DNA from: Blastocystis sp. Blastoise | Lineage: Eukaryota; Protista; Bigyra: Opalinata | Length of the DNA stretch: 64,000 nucleotides | Direction: 5' to 3' | NCBI GenBank assembly: GCA_039096225.1 | Contig: JBBPEB010000034.1 | Coordinates: 992,001 to 1,056,000 of the forward strand | Shown: in pieces, positions 1,123 to 17,831 of the stretch | Numbering within the stretch: position 1 is the stretch's first letter | Layout: each line of letters opens with the position of its first letter | Program-made: the position numbers and the translations under genes | The notes under the pieces: model-generated | What the model was told of the DNA's origin: nothing | Seen by the model: the letters and a program-made list of their open reading frames with translations, nothing else | Databases searched by the model: none

Positions 1123-1449
1123 TTCTATGAAATGTTATAAAATATTAATAATAAACAAGCGTTTCACGACTGGCTACGCCAGCCTACGCTTGAATCTAAA
1201 TAAACATAAAAAAATAATTTGTAAAAAGACTATCTTTTCATTATATAAAAATTATTTATTTCAAATTTTGTTTTATTTTATTAATATTATCAATAATCGT
1301 TTCATAAAAAGAAAATTAAAAAAAAAAAATTAACAATATATAAAATAAAGATTACATTCTATTTCATTAGTAAATATATTTAAATACTTTAAAAACTTTT
1401 ATTATTGTACATAAAATATAGTCTATGCAATAAATAAGTTATTATAAAA

Positions 1450-3800
1450 AAACTCTAAAAAACTATAACATTTTGAAATACATATACTCACTTTTATTAA
1501 AACGAATTTTGTGCTAATATACATATATATTTAATTTATTATTTTAATTTATAAAGAATAATTTGAATCTCTTTTATTTAAAGTCACAATTACAAAAAAT
1601 GAGTTCTTTTGAAAGACACAAAACATTCTTTAAACAATAATAGTTTTGTATTTAGTGACAAAAAAACGTATTATACGGTTTTAGAAACAATTAAAATCAT
1701 TTTACCCATTTTAACATTCCTATCAAACAGTCAACCATGTTTAATTAAACTAATTTTTAATATTTTATGTTCTATAATAAGTCTATTTATTATTTTAATA
1801 AAAGGTAACTTGAATCTCTTGACTTAACTATTGTAATTCTAAAAAAATAATTTTTTGAACAACTTAAAATATTTATTTGTTGTAGATTTTAATATGAAAC
1901 AGTTAAAAAACACTCTATACATACTTATTACAACCATTTTAGAAAAATAGACTCATTTTAACATTTTATTCAAACACACAACCACCTTTATTTCAAACAA
2001 TTCTTTAATTATTATAAACATTAAACACTCTAATACTCATTTTTACAAAAAGTGTATTGAATCTCTTTACTTAAGACAGTCAAACGGACAATTCAAAATC
2101 ATTTTACCCTTTAAACTCATTATAAAGTAATAATATTTATACAATTGCTTTGATATGTGATTTAGGACACATTGAACTACTTTTTACAAAATTTTGAGTC
2201 AACATTTCCAGTTTGTCATTCACTCGTCAACTCCACTTTTGACTGATTTTTTGAGAAATGCAATACATATGTAGTCTAGTTTTCAAATATGTAAAAATTA
2301 ATTGTCAAATATGAATTTGATTTGTCAACTTTCGGAAAATTTTTAGAAAAATGATTTTTCAATTTTCAGTTTTTTAACATGTTATACTATTGACTCTACT
2401 AAACTCATTTCTTAATTAATTTTGAATATTAAAATTTATATTATTAATATGTTTTATTCTCTATATTTATTTGTTATAATTATATAAAATAATTAAATAT
2501 TGACTGAGAAATTAATGTTATAAAGTATACCCTTTTTTCAAAAAATAATTTTTTTATGTTTTGCATATATAATTTTTTATCTCAAAAGTTATTTTATATT
2601 TTGATAATATTTTTCTAAATATATAAACTATATGTTATCTAGTTTATAAATAAGTTTTATTTATTTTATTTAAATTAATATTGATGGAGAAATTGTCAAA
2701 ATAAACTATAGTATCAAAAATGCTTTCTTCTTTTTAAACGACTTATTTCACTAATTAAAGATTTTTAAAAACTAATTTTCTTATTTAAAGCTTATTTATG
2801 ACGTTCACAACTCATAATGACTGATAACTTACTTTTTAGAACAAACATTGTCTGTATCAGTTCAACATGTTGTCTTAACTTTTGTAAATGAGTGACATAT
2901 AGTGTCCACGAATGATTCTAAACACTAATTAAAACGTTTTAAGAGTTTATTAAGTTAACATTGTCTGGTGATCTGTTGTCAAAGTCTTTTAAAAACAAAA
3001 TAAAATAATAAAATATGTTTATTTTGATATGTAGTTTTTGAATATAGTGTCAAATGTCAAATATGCTTGTTAATGATGAAAATATAAACAAAAAACAAAT
3101 GAAAAATTTTTAACAAAATTTTCGAACGTCATTTTTTTATTGAGTTTAACTATTGTCTCCTGTGACTTCATTTTTTAATATTTTAAAAAAATGGCAAAAA
3201 CGGATGACATTTAGGTCGTGCTATATCTAAATAAGCTTTAACTTTATTATTTTATAAAATATTGACTGAGATCTGATGATAACAAAATATACCATTTTTA
3301 GAAAAATTTCATTTTTATGTTTTTAATATAAATTAACATATCTCGGTCAATATTAAATATTAAACAAAAATATAAAAAACGGATGACATTTAGGTTGTCT
3401 AATATCTAAATATGTTTTTATTTTTATTATATATTGAATATTGACTGAGATCTGATGATAACAAAATTGGGTATCAAAGATGAAAAATTTTTATAAACAA
3501 ATATTTTCTTATTAAAAGATATAATTAAAATATAAAACATATTTATGACGGATATAGAGTTAACTAAATACATTAAAGCTCAAATAAGTTTATTAAGAAG
3601 GAATGTGTTGGATATCAGTTTGTCTTTTGTCGTTATTTAAAGGAATTATTGCTATTTCAGAGTAGTTAAAGTCATCTACATTACGCATGTAATCATTTTA
3701 GAGTTTAAAGTTAGTAATGTGTGTATTGATATGTTGTCAAGTTGTAAATATAAACAAATTTACCCGTCAAAACTATTTAATAGACCAACCCGTCAATAAA
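1450..3800. repeat. Diverged tandem-repeat non-coding region (about 247-bp, 180-bp and 760-bp periods)
   Basis: TTGAATCTCTT at 1563/1810/2057. CATTTTAACATT at 1707/1954. AAAACGGATGACATTTAGGT at 3197/3376. A 30-bp identical block at 3259/3438, with related copies at 2497/2678. Confidence 0.75.
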
Positions 3801-4180
3801 AGTTAATTTTATAAAAATAAATATAAAGAATGTGAGTAGATATAGGAAAAATAAGAAAACAATAAAAAATGAAAAACGAAAAATAAGTGTTTTTATAAAA
3901 ATGAAGAATATTGGATAAAATAAAAATAATCCAATAATTTTGGTTAAAATTTTGTGCGAAAATGGTTTTTTGCGTTTTTTAGCCAGAAATTTAGACTTTT
4001 CGAAAAATTTCTTTAACAGCCATTTTCAGAATTGTGTTCCGGATTTTATGATGTTATTTTTATTTTATAAAAGCTAATAACAAATTCAATAAAGGTGAAA
4101 GTGTGTGAGACACCGTACGCTACATGAACTAAATTAAGGATATTAATTTGTTTTGTTTATAAATAATTTAATTTTTAATA

Positions 4181-5977
4181 ATGCAATCAACAGGTTATTC
4201 AGATAAAGATTGTGAAGAATTCTTTACAAATTGTATAGATCAATTATTACATTGGAAGAAAATACAATTATCAACAAGTATAAATTGGAAGAAATGGATC
4301 AAGACAATATGTAAGAAATTTCGTAATGAAGAACGAATTCAAATAGATGATATGGAAGAACCGTTCTTTTGTGTAGAAGTGTTAACAGATCCATTTCAAT
4401 TTCAAAATGTTATGCAACATACACAAACAGAAGCTCCTGGACAACAAGGTGGATTATCCAATACTACTGTAGCTAATTATATGCAAATGATTACTTATAT
4501 AATGAAGAATATATCTATTTGTACAGATGATGAAGATATCATTAATTATAAAGCATTTACTCCACAAAATATAAAGAAATGGGAACATTTATGGGGTTCT
4601 TTACAAATTGATGCTACTTACTCAAGACATTATGAAATCACTCAGAAAATTATTAATTGTGAAGCTGATTGGGGAGAAATCATTAATATCACCAAAAAGA
4701 ATTATTTAGAGAATCCTAATGATTTATATTATGTGAATAGTTATTTATTAGTTTTAACTTATGATACACTCTGTGCTCGTAATGATTATAATGATTGTGT
4801 AATCTATACTCGTGGTCAACAAATTCCTTTATCGTTAAGAAGAACAACTAATTATATTGATTTAAATACTTTAACTATTCATGTGAATGATACAAAAAAT
4901 CGATTTGAAATTGGTAAGAATGAATATCCTACTTATCAATATTTATCAGAAGAATATTTGAATGTCTTAGCTAGATCCTTACGTTTATTTCCAAGACATT
5001 ATTTATTTGTTACTGAAAATGGTGGTAAAGTACGTGATTTGAAATTTGGTGATGAATATATAAAACCCCATTTAGGCTGGATTTATAAAACACAACAGAA
5101 TAATTCTTTAATTAATGGTTGTGATATTATAAGACATTTATTTGCTCAATATTATTATAGATTATCAAGAGAAGCACAATTCCAACATAATGATTCAGAA
5201 CACGAATCTAAAGGTGTAGAACTGTTTGAAAATTCGATTATGAAGATGTTACATAGTCAATCAACACATATGGAAAATTATATATCTCCTTATTTATCTT
5301 CTCATTCAACTAAATTGCAAGATTTAGATAATAAAACAAGAACATTTCATATTGATATGAATAATATTACTTATACAAGAGAAATTAATCAATTAAATAA
5401 ATTATTATTTTTATGTAAACGATTTAATGATCGTATAGAACAATATGAAGAAGACTATGAAGATGTATTTGGTAAAGAGAATTTCAATATGAAATCAGAA
5501 TCGATATTAAGTAGTCTAGAACAATATTCATCAGATAATGATACTATAATGATTACATTAAGATATTATAAAGATCTATTAAAGCATAAGTATCCTGATA
5601 AAAACGATTTAGAAAATGAATTACCTGTAGGATGTTCATTAGAATCTGAAGAAGTTCCAGAGAATTCTAGAGATCGTTATAATCGTTTTATACGTAATAA
5701 ACAATTATTACCTGATCATTTACATAATAATACAACGGATTCAGAATTAACGAATACTCAAGCATCTCTTATGCAACAAAATACTCAAGATGAAAACTCT
5801 ACACCTATAGTTATGAATAATTCAGATACTTATGCATTACGTAGTCTTTCTACTATGCCTCCTTTAGAACCTATTCATCGTGGTCATGGTTTATTGAAAA
5901 AACATAAAGGTAATGCATTCTTTAAAGTCAAAGTCCCTAAAAAACATTTTCATGGAATTCAATTTAAATTTTATTAA
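4181..5977 (+). CDS. Tyrosine recombinase/integrase (PLV/virophage type) with a long C-terminal extension
   Basis: Catalytic motifs in order: ARND (R), NYI..., NDTKN (K), YLF, DIIRH (R), MLHS (H), HMENY (Y). Confidence 0.75.
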   Translation: MQSTGYSDKDCEEFFTNCIDQLLHWKKIQLSTSINWKKWIKTICKKFRNEERIQIDDMEEPFFCVEVLTDPFQFQNVMQHTQTEAPGQQGGLSNTTVANYMQMITYIMKNISICTDDEDIINYKAFTPQNIKKWEHLWGSLQIDATYSRHYEITQKIINCEADWGEIINITKKNYLENPNDLYYVNSYLLVLTYDTLCARNDYNDCVIYTRGQQIPLSLRRTTNYIDLNTLTIHVNDTKNRFEIGKNEYPTYQYLSEEYLNVLARSLRLFPRHYLFVTENGGKVRDLKFGDEYIKPHLGWIYKTQQNNSLINGCDIIRHLFAQYYYRLSREAQFQHNDSEHESKGVELFENSIMKMLHSQSTHMENYISPYLSSHSTKLQDLDNKTRTFHIDMNNITYTREINQLNKLLFLCKRFNDRIEQYEEDYEDVFGKENFNMKSESILSSLEQYSSDNDTIMITLRYYKDLLKHKYPDKNDLENELPVGCSLESEEVPENSRDRYNRFIRNKQLLPDHLHNNTTDSELTNTQASLMQQNTQDENSTPIVMNNSDTYALRSLSTMPPLEPIHRGHGLLKKHKGNAFFKVKVPKKHFHGIQFKFY

Positions 5978-6021
5978 TTTTAAAACAAAACAACTTTTTA
6001 TAATAAAAAATAAATATATAT

Positions 6022-9000
6022 TTAATTTGGTATAGCATATAAAGTATTATCTATTAAAATTCGTTTTGTTGATGACGTATTATGATATTGATCTTCACTA
6101 TAAACAATTTCTTCTTTCTTAGATAAACAATTGGATAAACAGAATAAATCTGTATCCACACATTCATTATAAGTATTATCAATCATTAAACCACAAATAC
6201 CAATAGCATTCCCTCCCTTATAGAAATTTGAAGTATGTTTTCTATGAATATTCACAATATCTATAGAATTGAATGTATCTTTACTACTTAAACAACCAAA
6301 TAAAGCATTTGTAAATTTATCTAAATCCTTCTTAATCGTAAATTGATTATTATTATTCACTTTCTTATAACTATTAAAAATATCTTCAATAGTAACTACA
6401 TTCAAATAATAAGGATCTATAGTCATATGGTTATCAACAAAAGATTTCAAATCATATCCTTCTGTACTACGATCAAAGAATCGTTTCTTACATTCACTTA
6501 TATGATATTCATTATCTAATTCATGCATATCTAATTGCATACTAGAATAGAAATAATTACTTACTAGATAACTAAAGATAATAGAACGATTCTGATAGAA
6601 TTTATCGGATAGAGTATAATCCATTTCATAATGATTGGGTTTCAATCTCTTTTCTACTGTCTGTTTACGTTTCGGTAAATTATGATCTACATAATCTTCA
6701 TATAAATTAGCATTACCAGGAGGGAAATAACGACAACATGAAGGTAAGAAACACACTCTTCTTTCAATAGGACCAGCATTCACAGCAGTAGGTTGAATAT
6801 TACTTGTCATAAATAAAGTACCCGTGAAATGAACTTTTGTAAATATATTACTGAATAATTTACGAGCACTAGCACCTTCTTTCTTTTCTGCTATTTCTTT
6901 AAATACTTTAGAAGAGAATGGATTAAATGTTTTCTTTCTACCAGTAACATCTTCTTCTATTAATTCATTCATATAATACATTGTTTTATTAGACATATCT
7001 ACAATCTTAGGAGCTATAGATGTTTCTTCTAAATTATCTGGATTTACTATAATACATTGATTACTACCTACAATACGAGAAATTAAATCAGTTGTTATTG
7101 TTTTACCATTACTACCTGTACTACCATATAATATATAAGAAACAGTTTTCTGAGTATTGACATAGAAAGCAGTGGTTAAGATACGTAACATAATACTTTC
7201 ATATTTCTTATCGAATTCACAATATCTTGCAATATGTTGTTCAAATAATTGGATAATATCTTTCTGTTCATTATTAATATTCCAACTGACATTAAATTCA
7301 GTATCAATTAATAAATCTTCAAATACCATATCTTCTTTATGATATGGTTGGATATAATATTGTCTAGGATCTTCTTCTGTTGATTCTTTTGGATATAAAT
7401 AACCAAGTTGTGTATAGATAACACGTTCTTTATGAACCATATACGTATCTAAATATTCTTTATAAGATTTACCATAAGTCTTCAAATAACGATTCAACCA
7501 TTCTTTATAATGATATTCATTAGTAACAGAAGCAGACATTATTTTATCAACTATTTTTTGATGTTGTTCATTCTCTTTAGAATATAATCTTGATAATTTG
7601 AATTTCTCTACAATCGATTTCATAAATGTAGTTATTTTGGTTTCAAAGAAATTAATATCATAATTATTCTTACAACGTCTTAAGATATTATATTCATCAA
7701 ATGTATATAAGATAAAATTATCTTTATCTAATATAATGGAAACAATTTCATTAAATTCTAATAATTGAAATAACATAACTAATGTTTGTGAATCTACAAG
7801 ATTAAAGGATTGAATACATTCTAAAATAGACATAAATATGAAATCATTATCATCATCTTTATTAAATAATTTATTATCCATTAATATCTTCAAAATATAA
7901 TTATTCGATAAATGAGTAGGATCAACTTGTATATGATTCCATGTAGATTCAATTACATCATCACTTCGATCATGACCATAACGTAATGAATAATTTTTAA
8001 ATAATTCTAATCCTCTTGTTGTATTACAAATCTGTTTTGCTGCACAACATAATTTATACCAAGTATTATGAGATTCAAAATAATTCATATCTTCAATAGA
8101 ACCAATCAATAATAAATATCGTTCTAATAAAGCTTCTTTAGATGCTGTAGTATCCAATATAGTATCTGTAGAAATCAACATAGGAATATCTTTAATATCT
8201 TGTATAGAACATAATATAGTACGTGAACAATTATTTAATCTTGCATAATAACGTTTATAACGTGAATATTGTTTTAATTTATAAAAGATAATAGGATTAA
8301 TAATATCACTTATAATATCATCTTCATTCTTATAATTCAATAATGTTTTGAAATAATAATGTTCATCGATTTCTCCTTCTATTTTCTTCCATGATTTATT
8401 TGTATATTCTTCGTATAATTTATAAGTAGATGGAGAATTATCTTTACTACAACCAAGAAACATACAACCATTATTCTTTCTTGGTTTACCAATAACATTA
8501 TAATCAATGAATTCTTTTATATCTAAATTATTCATTTTACATAAATCAACCAATTTTGTATTCAGAATCATACTATTATATAAGAAAAATAAATAATCAC
8601 CATTTACAAACCAATTTGTATATATGTGAATTCCCCATGAATAATGTATTTCATTATGAACTGTCTTCTTATTCACTTCTTTCTTTGTATACACAAGCGA
8701 AATAAATTCTTGATTATAATAATGAATACAATGATTACATATTTCTTCAATAAATTCATGAATAAATGAATCTGTTAGAAAAGAAAAATCATTTGATATT
8801 TGGTGATAATCTAAATCAAACCATAATCTTCTATAATTAGTTGATGTATTACAAGGAGTACAATCAATATAATGTAATAATTCTTTTGGATTTTGGTAAT
8901 TAGTAAATAGACTTTTATAAAATGGTAATGGATTTGGTATAATAATTTCACTATGATTATCTTTTGAATTATCATGATTAAAGGAACCAAAAGTATAAAC

Positions 9001-9024
9001 AAAATGAATTTGTGAATTTTCCAT
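6022..9024 (-). CDS. D5-like primase-helicase (AEP + PriCT-2-like + SF3 helicase)
   Basis: AEP motifs WFDLD, WGIHIY and DYNV...FLGCSK. PriCT-2-like segment HNTWYKLCCAAK...LELFKNYS. Walker A YGSTGSNGKT, Walker B YYMNE, motif C FMTSN, Arg finger ERRV. First ATG is at 9024 (MENSQ). Confidence 0.9.
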   Translation of the reverse strand: MENSQIHFVYTFGSFNHDNSKDNHSEIIIPNPLPFYKSLFTNYQNPKELLHYIDCTPCNTSTNYRRLWFDLDYHQISNDFSFLTDSFIHEFIEEICNHCIHYYNQEFISLVYTKKEVNKKTVHNEIHYSWGIHIYTNWFVNGDYLFFLYNSMILNTKLVDLCKMNNLDIKEFIDYNVIGKPRKNNGCMFLGCSKDNSPSTYKLYEEYTNKSWKKIEGEIDEHYYFKTLLNYKNEDDIISDIINPIIFYKLKQYSRYKRYYARLNNCSRTILCSIQDIKDIPMLISTDTILDTTASKEALLERYLLLIGSIEDMNYFESHNTWYKLCCAAKQICNTTRGLELFKNYSLRYGHDRSDDVIESTWNHIQVDPTHLSNNYILKILMDNKLFNKDDDNDFIFMSILECIQSFNLVDSQTLVMLFQLLEFNEIVSIILDKDNFILYTFDEYNILRRCKNNYDINFFETKITTFMKSIVEKFKLSRLYSKENEQHQKIVDKIMSASVTNEYHYKEWLNRYLKTYGKSYKEYLDTYMVHKERVIYTQLGYLYPKESTEEDPRQYYIQPYHKEDMVFEDLLIDTEFNVSWNINNEQKDIIQLFEQHIARYCEFDKKYESIMLRILTTAFYVNTQKTVSYILYGSTGSNGKTITTDLISRIVGSNQCIIVNPDNLEETSIAPKIVDMSNKTMYYMNELIEEDVTGRKKTFNPFSSKVFKEIAEKKEGASARKLFSNIFTKVHFTGTLFMTSNIQPTAVNAGPIERRVCFLPSCCRYFPPGNANLYEDYVDHNLPKRKQTVEKRLKPNHYEMDYTLSDKFYQNRSIIFSYLVSNYFYSSMQLDMHELDNEYHISECKKRFFDRSTEGYDLKSFVDNHMTIDPYYLNVVTIEDIFNSYKKVNNNNQFTIKKDLDKFTNALFGCLSSKDTFNSIDIVNIHRKHTSNFYKGGNAIGICGLMIDNTYNECVDTDLFCLSNCLSKKEEIVYSEDQYHNTSSTKRILIDNTLYAIPN

Positions 9025-9109
9025 GATTATTTGACTTATAAATAATGAAAATAAATATGGTATAAAATTCAAAACAAATAATATATTAAAGATTCTAGAA
9101 GTCAGTTTT

Positions 9110-9241
9110 AGAAGCTTCTAGAACATTCTAGAATATTCAGGAACATTCTATAATAGTAAATATTACTTTATATTTTTAAATGTTCTAGAACCTTCGAGAA
9201 CATTCTAGAACCTTCTAGAACCTTCTAGAACCTTCTAGAAC
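9110..9241. promoter_or_regulatory. Two heat-shock-element arrays (8 and 12 in-phase inverted nGAAn units) upstream of the primase-helicase
   Basis: 9110-9149: aGAAgcTTCtaGAAcaTTCtaGAAtaTTCagGAAcaTTCt. 9182-9241: gTTCtaGAAccTTCgaGAAcaTTCtaGAAccTTCtaGAAccTTCtaGAAccTTCtaGAAc. Confidence 0.8.
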
Positions 9242-9350
9242 ATCATTTTTATACTTTAGTGTTTTAAATGTATATACAATAAACAAAACAATTTTCAATG
9301 ATTTTTTACAAGTTTATAAGTAAAACTAGAAAAATAAACAAGAAAAATAA

Positions 9351-9974
9351 TTAAATTTCAATTGGTTCTTGACTATTAATATATGTACATGAATGAGGCC
9401 ATCCATTTTTATCATATAAAATACCATCCCAGAAATACATTTGTTTTGAAGGATCTCTTTTAATCTTGTTAATACTCTTAGCATGAACAACTTCATAAGA
9501 ATAAACTTTACCTTTTTCATCATAAAGGAATCCATCTTCCATATGGAATTTCATAATATCAAAATCATCATCTTTAGAATTCGAATGTTCTTTAGAATCT
9601 TCAGAACATAAAATAGTAGTTCTATCACTTTCTAAAAGATCTTCAGTATTGATAATATCTTGAATATCTTGTTCTTCATTAAGTTGTTGAGTATAAATAT
9701 CAGCAGCGAATTCTTCATAATCTTCAAGACCTTTAATAACCGCGTTTATACGTTTTAAAGCTGATCTATAGTTTTCGACTTCGAAAGAAGCAAGACGTTC
9801 TTTAGATTTTGCAATACCCAATAGATTCTTTTCTCTATTCAATTGAGACTGATGTAAATCAATATCACGAAGAACATTCTTATGAACTTCAACAGCCTTC
9901 TTAGAATTCTTAAGAAGTTCCATACGAACAGTTTGAAGACATTTACGGGAATCAGCAGAAAGATTAAATTGCAT
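9351..9974 (-). CDS. Viral hypothetical protein with an N-terminal coiled coil
   Basis: ORF from ATG 9974 (MQFNLS). Heptad-like N-terminal half; C-terminus has two DG.LYD..G repeats (DGFLYDEKG, DGILYDKNG). Confidence 0.75.
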   Translation of the reverse strand: MQFNLSADSRKCLQTVRMELLKNSKKAVEVHKNVLRDIDLHQSQLNREKNLLGIAKSKERLASFEVENYRSALKRINAVIKGLEDYEEFAADIYTQQLNEEQDIQDIINTEDLLESDRTTILCSEDSKEHSNSKDDDFDIMKFHMEDGFLYDEKGKVYSYEVVHAKSINKIKRDPSKQMYFWDGILYDKNGWPHSCTYINSQEPIEI

Positions 9975-10084
9975 TATAATCGCGAATATCGTTACAGAGA
10001 GAAAATTTGTATTTATCAAAATGAAATAAATAATACATTTAAATGGAATATTAAATATTCTAGGAGACAGTGTAGAATCTCTAT

Positions 10085-10256
10085 GGAATGTTCTAGAAGG
10101 TTCATTTGATTGGCTAATTTTGTCGACTTAGCATTTTTTATTTGTGTTTCAATGACGAGTATAGTCGGCATCTGTAATCTGATTGGATAAAAAAATTAGT
10201 AAAACACAATTAGACGATGACAACGATGTGTCATACGAAATAAGCTATTTTATTGG
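10085..10256. promoter_or_regulatory. Divergent promoter with a 4-unit HSE and three ATTGG (CCAAT) boxes
   Basis: gGAAtgTTCtaGAAggTTCa at 10085-10104. ATTGG at 10109, 10182 and 10252. Lies between divergent ORFs. Confidence 0.55.
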
Positions 10257-10372
10257 CTTATTTTCCAGCTGGAAGCAATAGGCTTTTGTTAGCAACTGAA
10301 ATGAAGAACTGTACACTAAAAATAGTATATTTAATATATTGTATAAAAATACTTTTGAAGGTTTAAATAATC

Positions 10373-10900
10373 ATGGAAATTCCTGATAGTCTTTCTGCCA
10401 GTTTATCCCCTTTCGGTCAAGCCATGATATCCCCCTTGTTGAATCCATTTGAAAATAGTGTTTCTGCAAATCCTATGGCTTTACCCAATGATAATGATTT
10501 CTGTTTTAATTCGCGTGACGAAATCATATTTGAAGATCCACCTCAAGAAATTCATCCAATCAATGATGTTTATGTATCTAAAAATCCAGATAGATATCAT
10601 TCGGTTAACAATCAACCAATACAATTTCAAGATCAAGTAAATACAAATCCTAATAAGCAAGCATTATTATTTACAAATGAGGAGTTAACAAATATATCCA
10701 GTCAATTCGAATCTTTATTTCAAACTATGGAAACAGCTGATAATATATTAAATAGTATTTATTGTACTGTTGATCATTTAAAAACAAAGATTGAAAGTCA
10801 GAAACAAGATTTGAAACAGATTCATGATGATTCTAAAGAAATTGTTTCATTATTATCCGAATATTCTATTCCTTCTATGTCTGAAATATTTGATCATTAA
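10373..10900 (+). CDS. Viral hypothetical protein with a disordered N-terminus and C-terminal coiled coil
   Basis: 175-aa ATG ORF; Pro/Ser-rich start; heptad pattern LTNISSQF...IVSLL. Confidence 0.75.
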   Translation: MEIPDSLSASLSPFGQAMISPLLNPFENSVSANPMALPNDNDFCFNSRDEIIFEDPPQEIHPINDVYVSKNPDRYHSVNNQPIQFQDQVNTNPNKQALLFTNEELTNISSQFESLFQTMETADNILNSIYCTVDHLKTKIESQKQDLKQIHDDSKEIVSLLSEYSIPSMSEIFDH

Positions 10901-10990
10901 TTATTTTTATTTAATTAATTATTTTGTTTTGTTTATTTTTTTTTAATTTAATTTCACAAAGTTTAAATGGAAAATAGAATAGTTTCAAAT

Positions 10991-11098
10991 AGAATTCTTG
11001 AATGGTCTAATGGATCTATTAAAGAAATATGTAACTACAGTATCATGGTTCGATTCCGTTAAAATGTTTCCATTAGATTATTCAAGTGTTCTTTTTTT
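10991..11098 (+). ncRNA. Putative Pol III (type 2 promoter) panhandle RNA with VA-RNA/vault-RNA-like architecture
   Basis: A box TGGTCTAATGG (11003-11013), B box GGTTCGATTCC (11047-11057) and T7 terminator (11092-11098). The 5' end (10991-11014) pairs with the 3' end (11069-11092), including G-U pairs. Confidence 0.7.
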
Positions 11099-11145
11099 CT
11101 AGAACCTTCTCGAACATTCTAGAACCTTCTAGAACCTTCTCGAAA
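11096..11145. promoter_or_regulatory. HSE array (10 units) upstream of the SSB-like gene
   Basis: tTTCtaGAAccTTCtcGAAcaTTCtaGAAccTTCtaGAAccTTCtcGAAa, ending about 75 bp before ATG 11221. Confidence 0.8.
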
Positions 11146-11220
11146 ATTGATTCATTTGAAAAGAATATCGTAAAATATTAGTATTAAAATACTTATATTT
11201 TTACTAAATACTTAACTAAA

Positions 11221-11814
11221 ATGTCTTCAACTGAATTTAAGAAACCTGCTATTCTTGATACTTCTAACTTTAATTTACAATGGGATGACACCAAAGAAAA
11301 TGCTGTTCTTTTAAATAATAATCATCGTGTATGTATTTCTACTGATGCTACACCATGTTTATTTGGTTATATTGTTACACGTGACAAATGGACTTTATTA
11401 ACAATTGAAGATGATAATCAAGTATTCTTAACTGCTTATAAAGAACTTTATCGTAAATTATGTGAATTATGTCCTGATGGTGATATTGTTAATTTTGTAC
11501 GTATGGATAATGGTAAATATAAGATTACAATTAAAGTACCTATTAATGCATCGAAGAATGTTACTATTGATATTACTGATAAAAGAGATAAGAAGATTAA
11601 TATCGGTAAAGATCCTAAGTTAACTTACGAAGAAATACGTGAAAAGTATATTCCACCAAATACGTTATGTAAAGTATTATTTACAATACATGGTATTCAT
11701 CGTTATAATAACAAGTATTATATTGGTTTATATGCTCGTTCTATTAAAGTCATCGATAAATCTACGAAGAATACTAATAGTAATGATACTATTATTGATT
11801 TAACTAATTTATAA
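11221..11814 (+). CDS. Probable viral single-stranded DNA-binding protein (OB fold, NCLDV/T7 gp2.5-like)
   Basis: About 200 aa. ISTDATPCLFGY and YYIGLYARSIKV resemble recalled motifs of this SSB family; short acidic/hydrophobic tail. Not searched. Confidence 0.55.
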   Translation: MSSTEFKKPAILDTSNFNLQWDDTKENAVLLNNNHRVCISTDATPCLFGYIVTRDKWTLLTIEDDNQVFLTAYKELYRKLCELCPDGDIVNFVRMDNGKYKITIKVPINASKNVTIDITDKRDKKINIGKDPKLTYEEIREKYIPPNTLCKVLFTIHGIHRYNNKYYIGLYARSIKVIDKSTKNTNSNDTIIDLTNL

Positions 11815-11889
11815 ATTTTTAATGTTAAATTTATTTTTTATTAATATATTTGTTTTGTTTATAAATAATTTTATAATTGAAATAAAAAA

Positions 11890-13518
11890 ATGCAAAGTTG
11901 TATATTAGGAATGCCAAGTCCTGGTACTTTTGGTATGAATTTAATTTCAACTGGAAAAGAATATAGGCGATATAATACACAACCATTACATAAAATGGAT
12001 CAATATAATCCAATATTTCATGAAATAGGTCCAAATTCATCTATGCCTGTGTCTACTTTAGAAAGTAAAGAAATACATGATGGTAAAGAAGATGATTATG
12101 TAGATCGTTCTAAAACATTTGGTAAAGATGCTGTTCCACAAGGAAATGGTGCTTTAATTCGTGCTAGAGCAGCAGGTAAAGGTGTAATGAAAGCAGCTGG
12201 TCCAGAAGAAGATAAAATAGATGGTGAAGATCGTCAATATAAAGTATTAAATCCATGTAAACCAAGACGTAAATCTGGTAGAGGAATTATTCCAAATAAA
12301 TCAGAAATCAATAAATTAGAGAATAATCAAGGTTCTGGTATTGGTGATGCAATTAAAAATAAAGTAAAAGATATGTATCAACGAAATGTATTAGATATAA
12401 GAGATGCTATTGTAGATAAGAAAGCAAATAGAAAAGCTCGTGATGCATTAGCTATTTTAGCTCAATATGTTGGTGACGGTCATCATGATCTTGATGATGA
12501 ATTCAAAAGATTCTATGAACATAAAATTAAACGTGGTGGAAAAATTCCTATATCAGTTGCTTCAGCAATTATGAATGCAATCAAAAATAAGAAAATAATT
12601 AAGAATCCAAAATTAAGAAGAATGTTAAGACCTTCAATTATACCAAAATATATAGATTTAGATTCAGCTCAAAGTGGTGATGGTATATTAAGAGTAAAAA
12701 GAGGTGGTGGATTCTGGAGCGGATTAATGGATTATGCACCAGCTCTATTAGGTGTAGTTGATAAAGGTATGGATTCTTTTGCTAAAGGTAGAAAAGCTTA
12801 TTATGATACACATTTGGCACAACAATCAAGTGAATTAAATGATATGGAATTTGAAATGGAAAAATTAAAACGTCAACAAGCATTAAATGAAATGAAAAAA
12901 CAAATAGGTTCAGGAAATACTATAAATAAGATGTTTGAAGGATATTATGATGTAGCTGATGAAATGCAAGATGCTCTTGACGAAGATGATAGATTACATC
13001 CACAACCCGTTGTTCAACCTCCACCACCTCCACAACAACAAGTTGTTAGACCTCCTCAACCTCAACCTCCTCAACCTTATAAACCAATGTCTCGTGATGA
13101 ACAAAGTTATCCTTATAAGATTTATGGTTTCCCTCAAAATGATAAAGAGAAAGTCGATAGAAAATGGAAAGAAGATGAAAGGGATAAACGAATAGCTGCA
13201 AGAAGAGCTAAACGTAGAGGATATGGTGGTCGAGTTAAATTAAGTAAAGAAGAATTCTTAGAACGAATGAGAAGAGGAAAAGAAGCTAAAAAGAAAAGAG
13301 GTGGTGAATTACCTCCATTGGTAACAGCTTATACAGATTTTGTAATACCTGCACAAGTAGAACAAAGGAAACGTAAAGTAGCTAAAAATGATTTAAAACA
13401 ATTGCAAATTATAAAACAGAAAATGGATAATAATGAAATATTAGATAGAGGTGAACAAATGTTTTGGAAAGAAAAGAAGTATATGTTATCAAAAAACTCA
13501 GGGGAGGGGATCTGGTAA
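11890..13518 (+). CDS. Basic core/DNA-condensing-like precursor with repeated G-x-G / GG putative protease sites
   Basis: K/R-rich with a Pro/Gln tract. Motifs SGRGI, QGSGI, KRGGK, SGDGI, KRGGGF, IGSGN, YGGR, KRGGE, SGEGI. Lies directly upstream of an adenain-like protease. Confidence 0.65.
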   Translation: MQSCILGMPSPGTFGMNLISTGKEYRRYNTQPLHKMDQYNPIFHEIGPNSSMPVSTLESKEIHDGKEDDYVDRSKTFGKDAVPQGNGALIRARAAGKGVMKAAGPEEDKIDGEDRQYKVLNPCKPRRKSGRGIIPNKSEINKLENNQGSGIGDAIKNKVKDMYQRNVLDIRDAIVDKKANRKARDALAILAQYVGDGHHDLDDEFKRFYEHKIKRGGKIPISVASAIMNAIKNKKIIKNPKLRRMLRPSIIPKYIDLDSAQSGDGILRVKRGGGFWSGLMDYAPALLGVVDKGMDSFAKGRKAYYDTHLAQQSSELNDMEFEMEKLKRQQALNEMKKQIGSGNTINKMFEGYYDVADEMQDALDEDDRLHPQPVVQPPPPPQQQVVRPPQPQPPQPYKPMSRDEQSYPYKIYGFPQNDKEKVDRKWKEDERDKRIAARRAKRRGYGGRVKLSKEEFLERMRRGKEAKKKRGGELPPLVTAYTDFVIPAQVEQRKRKVAKNDLKQLQIIKQKMDNNEILDRGEQMFWKEKKYMLSKNSGEGIW

Positions 13519-13610
13519 AGAGTAAAGATGAGAAACTTATTCAAAATTCAATGAATTGTGATAATCCTATTATATCTGATAAAACTCGTCATGTTACTCC
13601 TAGATCCCCT
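13491..13610 (+). other. Putative programmed -1 ribosomal frameshift signal
   Basis: In-phase A_AAA_AAC at 13491-13497, a 7-nt spacer, then a stem pairing 13505-13532 with 13585-13610. The -1 frame is the protease ORF. Confidence 0.75.
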
Positions 13611-14084
13611 GATAATTTTAAACAAACTCTATCTCAATATTGTAATATACCCAATTCTTTAATATCTCAATTATATAATTATGCTTATTTAAATAAACCT
13701 ACCTCTTCTGTTGCTTGTGATCGTGCTGAAAATGTTATGAAACAATTAAATAAAACAAATTCTCAATCTTATAATTATTATAATAGTTATGATGATTTTG
13801 AACAAAATATAGATCAAGATCAAACTAAATTTAATATGATCTTTCATGAAAGTCCTAGTGATCCTTATAATGGTCATTTTGAAGCTGTTATTTATAATGG
13901 TAATAAAAACATAGAACACTATTCATCATTAGGAAATAAACCTACTTTTTCAAAATCATTTATTCAAAATCATAATATTCAATATAATCCTATTCAACAC
14001 CAAAAAACTACAAGTAATGCAAATGGTTGCTTTTATTATTCTTTACTTTATTTACTTTCTAATGGAAATCTTATGCCTTGTTAA
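13497..14084 (+). CDS. Adenain-like (Polinton/PLV-type) cysteine maturation protease; -1 frame relative to the core ORF; first in-frame ATG at 13551
   Basis: NGHFEAV (catalytic His), HYSSLG (FDSFG-like position), IQYNPIQHQ (oxyanion Gln), NGCFYYSLLYL (catalytic Cys). Same order as adenovirus/Polinton proteases. Confidence 0.75.
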   Translation, partial: LRGGDLVKSKDEKLIQNSMNCDNPIISDKTRHVTPRSPDNFKQTLSQYCNIPNSLISQLYNYAYLNKPTSSVACDRAENVMKQLNKTNSQSYNYYNSYDDFEQNIDQDQTKFNMIFHESPSDPYNGHFEAVIYNGNKNIEHYSSLGNKPTFSKSFIQNHNIQYNPIQHQKTTSNANGCFYYSLLYLLSNGNLMPC

Positions 14085-14087
14085 AAC

Positions 14088-14107
14088 CTTCTAGAATATT
14101 CTAGAAT
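14088..14107. promoter_or_regulatory. HSE (4 units)
   Basis: cTTCtaGAAtaTTCtaGAAt upstream of ATG 14171. Confidence 0.65.
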
Positions 14108-14170
14108 CTCTAATTTATTATATTAATATTTTGTATAATTAATTTGTTTTGTTTATTATTTAATACTATA

Positions 14171-14326
14171 ATGACAAAGAAACGATTTGGCAATTACTAC
14201 TTAGATCGTAGTGCAGAAACTTTAGAGAATGTAAATGAAATACTGTCAGTTATTGAAATTGTTCTTATTATTATATATATTTTACTTTACTTTTATATGT
14301 CCAAGAAACGTTCTAGAACATTCTAG
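14171..14326 (+). CDS. Small single-pass membrane protein (51 aa)
   Basis: MTKKRFG... with hydrophobic ILSVIEIVLIIIYILLYFYM followed by basic KKRSR; has its own upstream HSE cassette. Confidence 0.55.
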   Translation: MTKKRFGNYYLDRSAETLENVNEILSVIEIVLIIIYILLYFYMSKKRSRTF

Positions 14327-14334
14327 AACATTCA
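14310..14334. promoter_or_regulatory. HSE (5 units)
   Basis: gTTCtaGAAcaTTCtaGAAcaTTCa, overlapping the stop of the 51-aa ORF and upstream of ATG 14429. Confidence 0.65.
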
Positions 14335-14428
14335 TTTTGAACTGGCTCTATTTGTAGAATCTTTAATTTATTATATTAGTGTTTTATATAATTAATTTGT
14401 TTTGTTTAATCATTGGTTAATTTAAATA

Positions 14429-14803
14429 ATGAACAAGAAATATCTTAGTTATTCTTATTTTTGTCGTGTGATGAAGAATCTAAAAGAAGAAGGAATTAAA
14501 TCTAAAAAGAATGAAATAGCGAATCTATTAGAACAATTTTTAAATAACAATAACAGCAAAAATCTTAGTGATTTACAACTAAGTTATTGTAGAAATATGT
14601 TACTTTATATAGATGATCCTGTGATTCATCAACGTCTTGAAATGCTATTGGATAAACAATATATGAAGAATGAGAATCAATATCAAGATGATAAGAATCT
14701 TATTCAACCCAATAATATGTTTATGCCTACTATGAAAAGTAATCAACAACAAAATCAATACCAAAATAATAATAATAATCTATCTTTCTTACCTTTTAAT
14801 TAA
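14429..14803 (+). CDS. Viral hypothetical protein (helical, Q/N-rich tail)
   Basis: 124-aa ATG ORF with an upstream cassette shared with ORF 14171. Confidence 0.65.
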   Translation: MNKKYLSYSYFCRVMKNLKEEGIKSKKNEIANLLEQFLNNNNSKNLSDLQLSYCRNMLLYIDDPVIHQRLEMLLDKQYMKNENQYQDDKNLIQPNNMFMPTMKSNQQQNQYQNNNNNLSFLPFN

Positions 14804-14876
14804 TTTTTATATCCTTTTATTACTAGTTGTTTAGTTATATTCAAAATTAAAACAAAACAAACATAAAAACATAAAA

Positions 14877-15812
14877 TTATTCAATTAATTTTTTAAATAA
14901 ATTATTATTTTCTAAAGATACATAAGAATTAATATGTGTATAATCATTATGACATAAAGCAGAAGCAGAATTTTCTATATCTTGGAATGTATTGGTTGTA
15001 GTTGTAGCATATAATTTTCTTAATGCATTAATGGTTAATTTTGGATGGATTTGTTTTAAATGCTTATTCACAAACCAATCAAATGCTTTAGTAGTAAATC
15101 CAGTTCTTACAGAAGATTCAAATATAAATTTACGATTTGGATTTCTTTTTAAGAGTAATTCTAGATCTTCAATCAATTCTTTTGGTGCATCTAATTGAAT
15201 TGTAGAGTATTTACCAGCAGTTTTATAATCATTCAATAGAATAGAACCAGTGTGTTTCTCTTTATCATAAACAATATAATTCTTATGAATAACTGGATCA
15301 ATAGTGTCTTCTGGAGTTAGAATGAATAATTGAGCATAATCAGCACGAGCAGGAGGAAGATAGGAGTAAAAATCTAATATTAATCGTAATGGATTATAAT
15401 TTTCTAATTTATCGTGATATTCATGTAAATATGGAGTCGTAATACCATCTTTAATAAGATCTTGAATCAAAGTGCGTTTCTTATTATCCAGATATTTTTC
15501 ATACATAGAATTGATAATCACATAAAATTCACACCATTTATTTAAAATACCTTCTTTATTTAATGAAGAAACATTACGTATAATAAATAATATCAATTCA
15601 CATAACGATTTCATTGGACTAATTTTGATTTTACGTTCATTTACCATATAATCCATGAATGAATAAGGATTCTTTAAGAATTCTGAGAATTTTTTAAATG
15701 GTAATGGGAAAATATATAAGTTGAAATAATTGGTTAAACGTTTTTTCCAAATATCAGAATAATTTGAATTCTGTATAACAGAAAGATACTTGTCATAATT
15801 TGTATTTTTCAT
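14877..15812 (-). CDS. Second tyrosine recombinase (PLV/virophage/NCLDV type)
   Basis: LPPARADY (R), NYIVY, LNDYKTAGKY (K), FIF, NALRKLYAT (R), ALCHN (H), HINSY (Y). First ATG is at 15812. Confidence 0.85.
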   Translation of the reverse strand: MKNTNYDKYLSVIQNSNYSDIWKKRLTNYFNLYIFPLPFKKFSEFLKNPYSFMDYMVNERKIKISPMKSLCELILFIIRNVSSLNKEGILNKWCEFYVIINSMYEKYLDNKKRTLIQDLIKDGITTPYLHEYHDKLENYNPLRLILDFYSYLPPARADYAQLFILTPEDTIDPVIHKNYIVYDKEKHTGSILLNDYKTAGKYSTIQLDAPKELIEDLELLLKRNPNRKFIFESSVRTGFTTKAFDWFVNKHLKQIHPKLTINALRKLYATTTTNTFQDIENSASALCHNDYTHINSYVSLENNNLFKKLIE

Positions 15813-15899: not shown

Positions 15900-15949
15900 G
15901 TTCTCGAATGTTCTAGAAGTTTCGAGAATGTTCTAGAATATTCTAGAAA
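15900..15949. promoter_or_regulatory. HSE array (10 units) upstream of the second tyrosine recombinase
   Basis: gTTCtcGAAtgTTCtaGAAgtTTCgaGAAtgTTCtaGAAtaTTCtaGAAa, about 88 bp upstream of ATG 15812 (minus strand). Confidence 0.8.
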
Positions 15950-16547: not shown

Positions 16548-16673
16548 TATTAATTCTTCCGTCGAGAACAAAAAGGGGGGATGACTTCCCCGCTTATGGC
16601 TGCGCGCGTCGCGCAGACTCTATGCGGGGTTTGCATACCCCCTTCTGCAGTTCGAAGAACGGAAGAATTAATA
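16548..16673. repeat. GC-rich imperfect palindrome/hairpin at the inferred provirus end
   Basis: Nested arms TATTAATTCTTCCGT/ACGGAAGAATTAATA, GAAC/GTTC, AAGGGGG/CCCCCTT, CCCCGC/GCGGGG, CTGCGCG/CGCGCAG. Confidence 0.9.
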
Positions 16674-17831
16674 TAAATTACCAGATGATGTAACCCTGTT
16701 CATATTTTCTTCAGGTGGTTTTCTGGTTAAAGAATCTGAATCAATCAAAAGCATAATAGGTTATGACTCCATTTCAACTCTCAACTTATATATATGTTTA
16801 GTATGATTTATTATATATTATATATCTATTTATATATAGGTACAATTAAGATGTCAATATAATAGTGAAACACTATTTTGCCATTGTACATGTAAATAAA
16901 TATTTTATTATATATATATATATATTTTATATAGTTCCACTATGGAATATATTTGGAAAAGAACAAAAACTTGCATGTGGATCAGTTCATTTCGACTGTA
17001 TATTGAATTAATTTTTGTTTTCAAACAATAAATCTATTGAATTATCACTTTTGTATATAGATACATGTGATCTACATCAATTTCTAATGTCATACAAAAA
17101 CTATAAAGTTCGTATCGACATTATTTCTTTAGAATGTATGTTATATTTTCATCAATTAGTTATTTATTCTTTCAAAATGATGTTTATAGACACAAAACAG
17201 ACTATATGTATTGAATATGACTCACGACCATGCAATTCTAGAGTATTTTATAATATGAAAAAGCTGCAAATAAGCTGTATATATATTTATTATTATTAAA
17301 TTATATTTATTTTGTATAGTGGGGGAACTGGATCGAACAGCTACAAAATATTTACAACAACTTTTAGAATCCTCCTTTTTTGTTTGTGATAATATTGTTA
17401 TAACAGGTATTTATTTTATTATTATATATTATTTATATAGGTGAAAAAATTCCTGAATGGGTACGTACATCTCTTCAATACGTATCAGGCATAAAAAATA
17501 TTAATATAAATTGGGACTTATCATGTATTATTTTATTTTTAATATATAATATCTCCATATTTATAGTACACACAATATTTGACTATGAAATATTACCTAA
17601 TATAAATGAAAATTCTGTGGATGGTATATATATATATATATTTTCATTATGTGCTTTGTAAAATATATTCTAATTACTATAGTAAATCTTCAGACTCCAA
17701 TGCCTATACAGAACAGCTCTCCAATATCATTAATAAGTGTTCAGTCAATAAATTCTATTATGGAGAATAAATGCATTTATGACCCAATTAAAGGTATGTG
17801 TTATGATTGTATTGATTAAAAAACGATTTAG

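Follow-up and report, generated by a model that had tools for sequence, protein, structure and literature searches.

A probable programmed -1 ribosomal frameshift links a GG-motif core protein to an adenain-like protease in an endogenous virus of Blastocystis

In an endogenous viral element of Blastocystis sp. Blastoise, a programmed -1 ribosomal frameshift probably fuses a likely core protein to the adenain-like protease encoded directly behind it, resulting in a minor core-protease polyprotein. All positions refer to the window, i.e. the whole stretch of 64,000 nucleotides that was analyzed. In the proposed mechanism one mRNA would cover both open reading frames, and the majority of ribosomes would terminate at 13516 and release a 542-aa protein. 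Translating ribosomes would pause at a 23-bp stem, and a presumed minority would slip on the heptamer A_AAA_AAC to produce a 731-aa fusion. As part of this fusion the protease would enter the particle. It is predicted to cleave itself off at LRGG|D and to process the GG motifs of the likely core protein as virions mature. The frameshift had been put forward in the original prediction and is now supported by fusions in relatives, conservation of the codons before the protease ATG, a split that is fixed in 21/21 copies, and a -1 overlap in a MELD virus. A wider claim, held with less assurance and favored on balance, is that in the polinton-like/MELD dsDNA viruses of Blastocystis the protease is made in Gag-Pro style, by extending a GG-repeat core polyprotein. 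Its junction would switch between in-frame fusion and -1 frameshift, with two unrelated cassettes: A_AAA_AAC plus a long stem, and A_AAA_AAG in an A8 run in a human-gut virus.

The upstream ORF ends with the codons TCA AAA AAC TCA GGG GAG GGG ATC TGG TAA; all features of the junction are on the forward strand. As predicted earlier, the slippery heptamer A_AAA_AAC (13491-13497) lies in phase, its first A being the third position of a codon. After a spacer of 7 nt (13498-13504) a stem of 23 bp follows, again as predicted, with its 5' arm at 13505-13532 and its 3' arm at 13585-13610. The helix consists of 11 + 6 + 6 bp (13505-15, 13520-25 and 13527-32, paired with 13585-90 and 13594-610), including two G-U pairs, and the pair probabilities were 0.89-1.0. 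The stop codon of the core ORF (TAA, 13516-18) lies inside a bulge of the helix (13516-19), and the first ATG of the protease (13551) sits in the 52-nt loop. The -1 frame is open from 13455 to 14084, contains this ATG and is indeed the frame of the protease. A tandem -1 slip at the heptamer would give 536 + 195 = 731 aa, the size originally proposed. The sequence after the shift would read LRGG-DLVK, and its first codons, L-R-G-G-D (13497-13511), form the predicted release site of the protease. The sequence features of a canonical -1 frameshift cassette, namely an in-phase heptamer, a stable structure 5-9 nt 3' of it, an early stop in the 0 frame and a -1 frame open into a conserved ORF, were thus all found.

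Folding of 13498-13615 resulted in a minimum free energy of -33.9 kcal/mol (z -3.29), and one of 200 dinucleotide shuffles was equally stable. Among the 1180 windows of 118 nt on the forward strand between 4100 and 16000, the stem window ranked second in stability, the first being a palindromic repeat array, and within core and protease it ranked first of 209. When the protease-frame peptide was recoded synonymously, 0/2000 sequences folded as stably with the codon usage of the element and 4/2000 with uniform codons. The heptamer was mostly unpaired (0.68-0.95) in a 200-nt fold. In total, 13 in-phase X_XXY_YYZ heptamers were identified in 11 ORFs; the one at 13491 is followed by the most stable fold (-24.2 for the runner-up), and it alone has a -1 frame that is open for more than 12 codons. 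Its AAC codon is rare (15 of 293 Asn codons). The G-runs, earlier described as atypical, proved to be so: GGG accounts for 3 of the 115 Gly codons in nine ORFs, and two of these three fall at this junction. The junction cassette is more than a product of chance. A search of Rfam gave four sub-threshold matches, none of them relevant, and a pseudoknot search in the window gave AU-rich loop pairings of 7-9 bp only, to which no weight was given. Five contigs from one sequencing run mapped to core and protease, none of them over 13467-13543, and no joints were observed.

The junction is part of an endogenous element (4181-15812) that comprises a YR-like ORF (4181-5977, forward strand; motif read by eye), a primase-helicase (6022-9024, reverse strand; PHROG E 2.6e-9), small ORFs and a tyrosine recombinase-like gene (14877-15812, reverse strand). 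The phage-integrase Pfam match in the element was weak (E 0.08). About 20 copies of the element are present in the proteome of Blastocystis sp. Blastoise. The core cluster has 11 named members, all from this organism, and so is every named member of the primase-helicase and recombinase-like clusters, which have 10 to 21 members. Therefore, this virus is endogenous to a tortoise Blastocystis and present there in multiple copies. The locus tags of core and recombinase are consecutive in 9/9 copies for which both are listed, and therefore the protease is unannotated in those copies. The element combines a replication/integration module with an adenain-type protease, a feature of polinton-like/MELD viruses. 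Neither a double jelly-roll capsid gene nor one for a packaging ATPase was recognized in the window, beyond whose first base the element possibly continues; therefore, the label 'PLV-like' is based on its replication genes together with the kinship of the protease to a published MELD virus.

An endogenous element with relatives that carry in-frame fusions might also contain a formerly in-frame gene that was broken by an indel, either through decay or through an assembly error. An indel in the A6 run had been named in the original prediction as evidence against the frameshift. In 21/21 distinct copies of the core protein (window included), the last 14 residues are identical, while 129 of 586 columns vary; these copies are near-identical paralogues and do not represent independent events. 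Since all of them share one C-terminus, the split is fixed and is neither an indel nor an assembly error. Furthermore, an indel would not supply a 23-bp stem at a distance of 7 nt, and the P0001-type proteases of relatives are stand-alone proteins in 15/15 members. Error or decay is thereby largely refuted and is considered extremely improbable.

The upstream ORF (11890-13518, forward strand) encodes a basic protein of 542 aa (pI 9.6) with four GG motifs, three of which are KRGG. No Pfam, PHROG, PDB-sequence or usable Atlas match was obtained for this protein, and its AlphaFold model was uninformative (mean pLDDT 46.5). Blocks at its N-terminus and its C-terminus can both be aligned to the N-terminal portion of the fused proteins P0033/P0018. 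Composition, motifs and position indicate that it is likely the virion core or substrate polyprotein. At the junction, LRGG fits the adenain P4 rule, as originally noted, but none of the four other GG sites, those of the core, has M, I or L at P4. The motif of this family therefore looks like basic-GG and not like the adenain consensus.

The -1 frame ORF (13455-14084, forward strand) encodes a cysteine protease resembling adenain, Ulp1 and pS273R. Its catalytic residues are found in the order His (13875-77), Gln (14001-03) and Cys (14028-30) and are invariant in the protease alignments. At the position of the catalytic acid the window protease family has a Ser, aligned with the Asp of the MELD virus, and another residue may act as the catalytic acid. 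An AlphaFold model was obtained with a pLDDT of 71, and the top 29 VIA rows for this model were all CE-clan or YopJ-type. The best of these matches had a Z of 8.0 (rmsd 3.4, 120 aligned), compared with 7.6 for pS273R and 5.7 for adenain, and the best match among viral models was the MELD virus protease (E 5e-4). Foldseek against the PDB gave nothing at E<=0.001 with Ulp1 on top (1.4e-3), and no Pfam family (including Peptidase_C5), PHROG or PDB-sequence match was found. The Atlas feature matches (0.93-0.94) were to C5-bearing clusters, with recognition below threshold. Judged by its model, the protease belongs to the CE clan. Hence the earlier term 'adenain-like' is retained for the modeled fold and the His-Gln-Cys order and dropped with respect to Pfam C5: the protease works like adenain in its predicted activity and fails the Pfam C5 test.

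Close relatives were compared as proteins only; no DNA of a close relative was found among viral, metagenome (protease profile) or genome contigs, or among phages. The protease family is small, with 4 representatives in 1.84 billion. In P0033 (617 aa), P0018 and P0002, single ORFs on assembled contigs lead from core-homologous sequence into the protease, and of the 15 proteins listed for the P0033 cluster, 11 extend across the junction, 7 of them at full length. P0034, P0055 and P0056 are fused gene models of 533 aa. The stand-alone P0001-type proteases are at most 190 aa long and are located on contigs of up to 24 kb. In a protease tree of nine rows split and fused forms interleave, and split P0001 is the sister of fused P0033/P0002 (85/85). 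Because the tree is midpoint-rooted and has one long branch, no direction of splitting or fusion is claimed.

Of the residues encoded by the ten protease-frame codons 5' of the first ATG (13521-13550), 5-7 are identical in each of six relatives, a conservation like that of the rest of the protease (53-67%). GG or GKG precedes these ten residues in P0002/P0018, P0033 and P0031, thus in fused and split forms. Being conserved like the protease itself and preceded by GG or GKG, these codons indicate that translation in the -1 frame is already under way before the ATG. This argues against a protease that is made from its own short mRNA, transcribed from inside the core ORF and translated from ATG 13551, in which case the heptamer and the stem would be incidental or serve another purpose. 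In line with such an mRNA, the Met at this position is retained in three lineages (window, P0001 and the fused lineage), and calls of 177 aa are common within the P0001 cluster. However, Leu replaces it in P0031 and P0039, where the next Met follows 32 or 60 residues on, and the protease of the MELD virus has no Met at all. Position -3 of ATG 13551 is a U, in contrast to the A of 9 of 10 other ORFs; the AT content upstream of it is 67%, compared with 80-94% for other ORFs, and 59 ATGs precede it. It is therefore a poor independent start. Apart from one TATAAA at 13410, no AT-rich or TATA-like stretch was found upstream. A separate protease mRNA is thus regarded as quite unlikely.

The motif TTGTTTTGTT, by its position a likely 3'-end signal, was detected 11 times against 0.44 expected, with 8 matches in the element. 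It or a one-mismatch form lies 3' of 7 of 11 ORFs. The first match after the core start is located behind the protease (14144-14153, forward strand), and none was found between the core stop and the protease end. The motif is absent behind three other ORFs of the 11 (with one ORF end taken 6 bases short), and a related motif of human isolates shows no enrichment in tortoise isolates according to the accessible part of PMC10690189. For these two reasons the position of TTGTTTTGTT is weak evidence for one mRNA across both ORFs.

Ribosomes might also end translation at the core stop and start anew at the near-cognate CTG in the protease frame (Leu, 13512-13514) or at ATG 13551, which would lead to free protease and no fusion. 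This CTG is flanked by G at both -3 and +4, and the called start of the P0001-type proteases aligns with it; there, the residues M-K would imply an NTGA overlap, as deduced from the protein. In the MELD virus, a TTG overlaps the core stop (T-TGA), and gene callers start there. However, the TURBS-like motif UGGGA is absent in 13400-13520, and the structure follows the slip site and spans the stop instead of lying upstream. Reinitiation also leaves the heptamer with its rare codon and the GG motif before the CTG unexplained. On this evidence reinitiation is an unlikely, though the least improbable, competitor of the frameshift.

Fusion could be achieved at the level of RNA as well, by alternative splicing of 13479-13501 or another frame-compatible GT..AG segment. 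Removal of this 23-nt segment, which has a GTATAT donor, would also join the core and protease frames, and in a second family from the same host (P0031/32/38/39) the gene models bridge the junction by introns. These models disagree with each other and use three different junctions, which suggests that this family is split as well. Since 28 frame-compatible GT..AG segments exist, one at the junction is unremarkable. At 23 nt the segment would be shorter than the introns known from human isolates, which measure 30 nt, and introns of tortoise isolates are longer still, as far as the accessible text of PMC10690189 goes. Only candidates of 62-80 nt would join the frames in the MELD virus. Splicing is accordingly rated as very unlikely. 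A survey of host intron lengths by a scan for AT-rich GT..AG segments was dominated by chance and was discarded.

A second junction was found in the distantly related Blastocystis MELD virus BK012044. Its 'Adenain' begins with a residue other than Met and contains no Met, according to the part of the PMC11071296 supplement that was available, and the GenBank name of the protein (DAC81487.1) is 'adenain, partial'. The accessible part of PMC8502044 describes this virus without any frameshift. When compared by hand, the first 38 residues of the Adenain and the last 38 residues of the GG-repeat protein were compatible as -1 and 0 frames of one sequence. With a 20-base primer deduced from this overlap 9 gut-metagenome contigs were retrieved, which are 99% identical to one another. 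Seven of the nine have a Met-free protease ORF of 176 codons in a 115-nt -1 overlap with the GG-repeat ORF, and the same seven carry an in-phase A_AAA_AAG within a G-A8 run. Of the six heptamers in 11 ORFs of contig L007, A_AAA_AAG alone is followed by a -1 frame that stays open over a long stretch (165 codons). Visual inspection of the L007 helix list suggested a possible H-type pairing with a long loop. The MELD and window proteases are homologous (hhalign 92.9%, E 3.8e-7, 23% identity); homology between the core and the MELD upstream ORF was not detected. The structure 3' of the MELD heptamer is weak and not significant, with a z of -1.4 at 60 nt and positive values at 80-160 nt.

The length of the MELD run varies between contigs, which would be in agreement with transcriptional slippage, where one A is added to the A-run in some mRNAs and the same fusion results. 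In two of the nine contigs and in the protein P0060 (12 contigs) one A fewer is present; there a -1 shift would miss the protease, which counts against the frameshift reading. The run in the window, however, is only A6 after a C, and a stem placed at the distance suited to a ribosome is not required for transcriptional slippage. For the window, slippage of the polymerase is therefore thought highly improbable, and a programmed frameshift on the ribosome is the preferred reading.

If this is correct, the retroviral solution for the dosage and packaging of a protease is also employed by a nuclear dsDNA virus from the adenovirus/polinton lineage. On the wider claim it would represent a general and so far unannotated route of protease dosing and packaging for midsize eukaryotic DNA viruses. 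One of the viruses concerned, the MELD virus, is common in human gut metagenomes, where its capsid-like and ATPase proteins are found on 1000 or more contigs. A frameshift would explain missed or 'partial' protease annotations, and it predicts hidden proteases in polinton-like genomes. Fused 1:1 forms, the strong-stem shift and the A-run shift would provide a natural series for the study of protease stoichiometry in virion maturation. We know of no earlier test of -1 frameshifting on Blastocystis ribosomes.

In the gag-pro genes of MMTV, HTLV and BLV, -1 frameshifting occurs at A_AAA_AAC followed by a 3' structure. The Blastocystis element shares with these the heptamer, the spacer length, the 3' stem, the order from structural protein to protease, and the predicted minor fusion with self-release. 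In contrast to the retroviral systems, it is a dsDNA element with a tyrosine recombinase and a primase-helicase, and its protease is a CE-clan cysteine protease and not an aspartic one. Moreover, its stem is long and interrupted with a 52-nt loop, and the shift is predicted from the sequence. The element would thus work like Gag-Pro without being a member of that group, as it has no aspartic retropepsin.

CE-clan maturation proteases cut GG|X substrates, and adenain, ASFV pS273R and poxvirus I7L are, as far as is known, translated from their own AUG. The window protease resembles these three in fold and in the order His-Gln-Cys, but its family differs by the Ser at the acid position and by the basic-GG motif. 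Frameshifts to -1 in virion genes are also known from phages, i.e. T7 10A/10B and lambda G/GT. In those dsDNA viruses, as proposed here, a -1 slip sets the ratio of two virion-related products; however, they use bacterial ribosomes, and the extension is not a maturation protease.

A core-protease frameshift was not described in the literature as far as it was accessible, and supplements beyond that might hold one; the closest is the hexon-adenain hypothesis of PMC11071296. There, in the accessible text, a single sentence on KnotInFrame reports hypothetical -1 fusions of Hexon-Adenain ('Hexain') and Penton, and the 12 Hexain entries seen in supplement file 2 include none from a Blastocystis virus. 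Both Hexain and the fusion proposed here are predicted -1 products of adenovirus/polinton-like viruses in which a virion protein is joined to a protease of the adenain type. The partner in Hexain, from what is accessible of that source, is the major capsid protein, whereas here it is a GG-repeat protein for which fused orthologues exist. The nearest parallel within Blastocystis, the MELD virus BK012044, likewise has a homologous protease 3' of a GG-repeat ORF, a -1 overlap and a slippery heptamer. It differs in having PolB and an rve integrase where the window element has a primase-helicase and YR, and in using A_AAA_AAG with a weak hairpin and a 115-nt overlap behind an upstream ORF that is not detectably homologous.

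The element carries two tyrosine-recombinase-like ORFs, one at 4181-5977 on the forward strand, recognized from a motif read by eye and giving zero matches in a Pfam search, and one at 14877-15812 on the reverse strand, identified by a weak Pfam match. The region to the left consists of a cut ORF (1-627) and a 140-aa ORF (700-1122), both without a family match, followed by an AT-rich, repeat-containing non-coding stretch of ∼3 kb (1200-4100). This region may represent the beginning of a missing virion module, or an origin. A G+C-rich patch with short inverted segments (16560-16680) lies close to the probable right end of the element.

Alternating TTCnnGAA arrays were located at 9111-9240, 10086-10103, 11097-11144, 14089-14106, 14311-14333 and 15901-15948. 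Within the window, 39 matches to the TTCnnGAA unit were found compared to 0.68 expected, and all were positioned within the element, 5' of its ORFs. These arrays resemble heat-shock elements, and it is possible that the element is reactivated under stress by the host heat-shock factor acting at them. Of the 11 window matches to TTGTTTTGTT, 8 fall in the element (4148, 5984, 9282, 10924, 11850, 14144, 14397 and 14851), mostly 18-70 nt 3' of a stop codon on the same strand. This motif resembles the Blastocystis downstream gene element, a type of motif described in PMC10690189 as not enriched in host genes of tortoise isolates.

At least two further families of the element were identified in the named Blastocystis sp. 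Blastoise proteome (proteins P0031/32/38/39 and P0034/55/56), and in both the core-protease gene models are bridged or fused. For the distant MELD virus, a variant with an A-run shorter by one A was observed at the junctions of gut-metagenome contigs L001 and L008 and in protein P0060; it occurs in 12 contigs, among them a named Blastocystis BT1 record, and is probably a defective integrated copy. Protease proteins share a 90% cluster with the GG-repeat protein encoded upstream of the protease on contig L007 (15 of 172 members listed), which would be accounted for if the remaining members include a fused form.

In the alignment of the protease region (13875-14030), the usual catalytic-acid position is occupied by Ser in all members of the window protease family, whereas the MELD virus protease has Asp at the same position.
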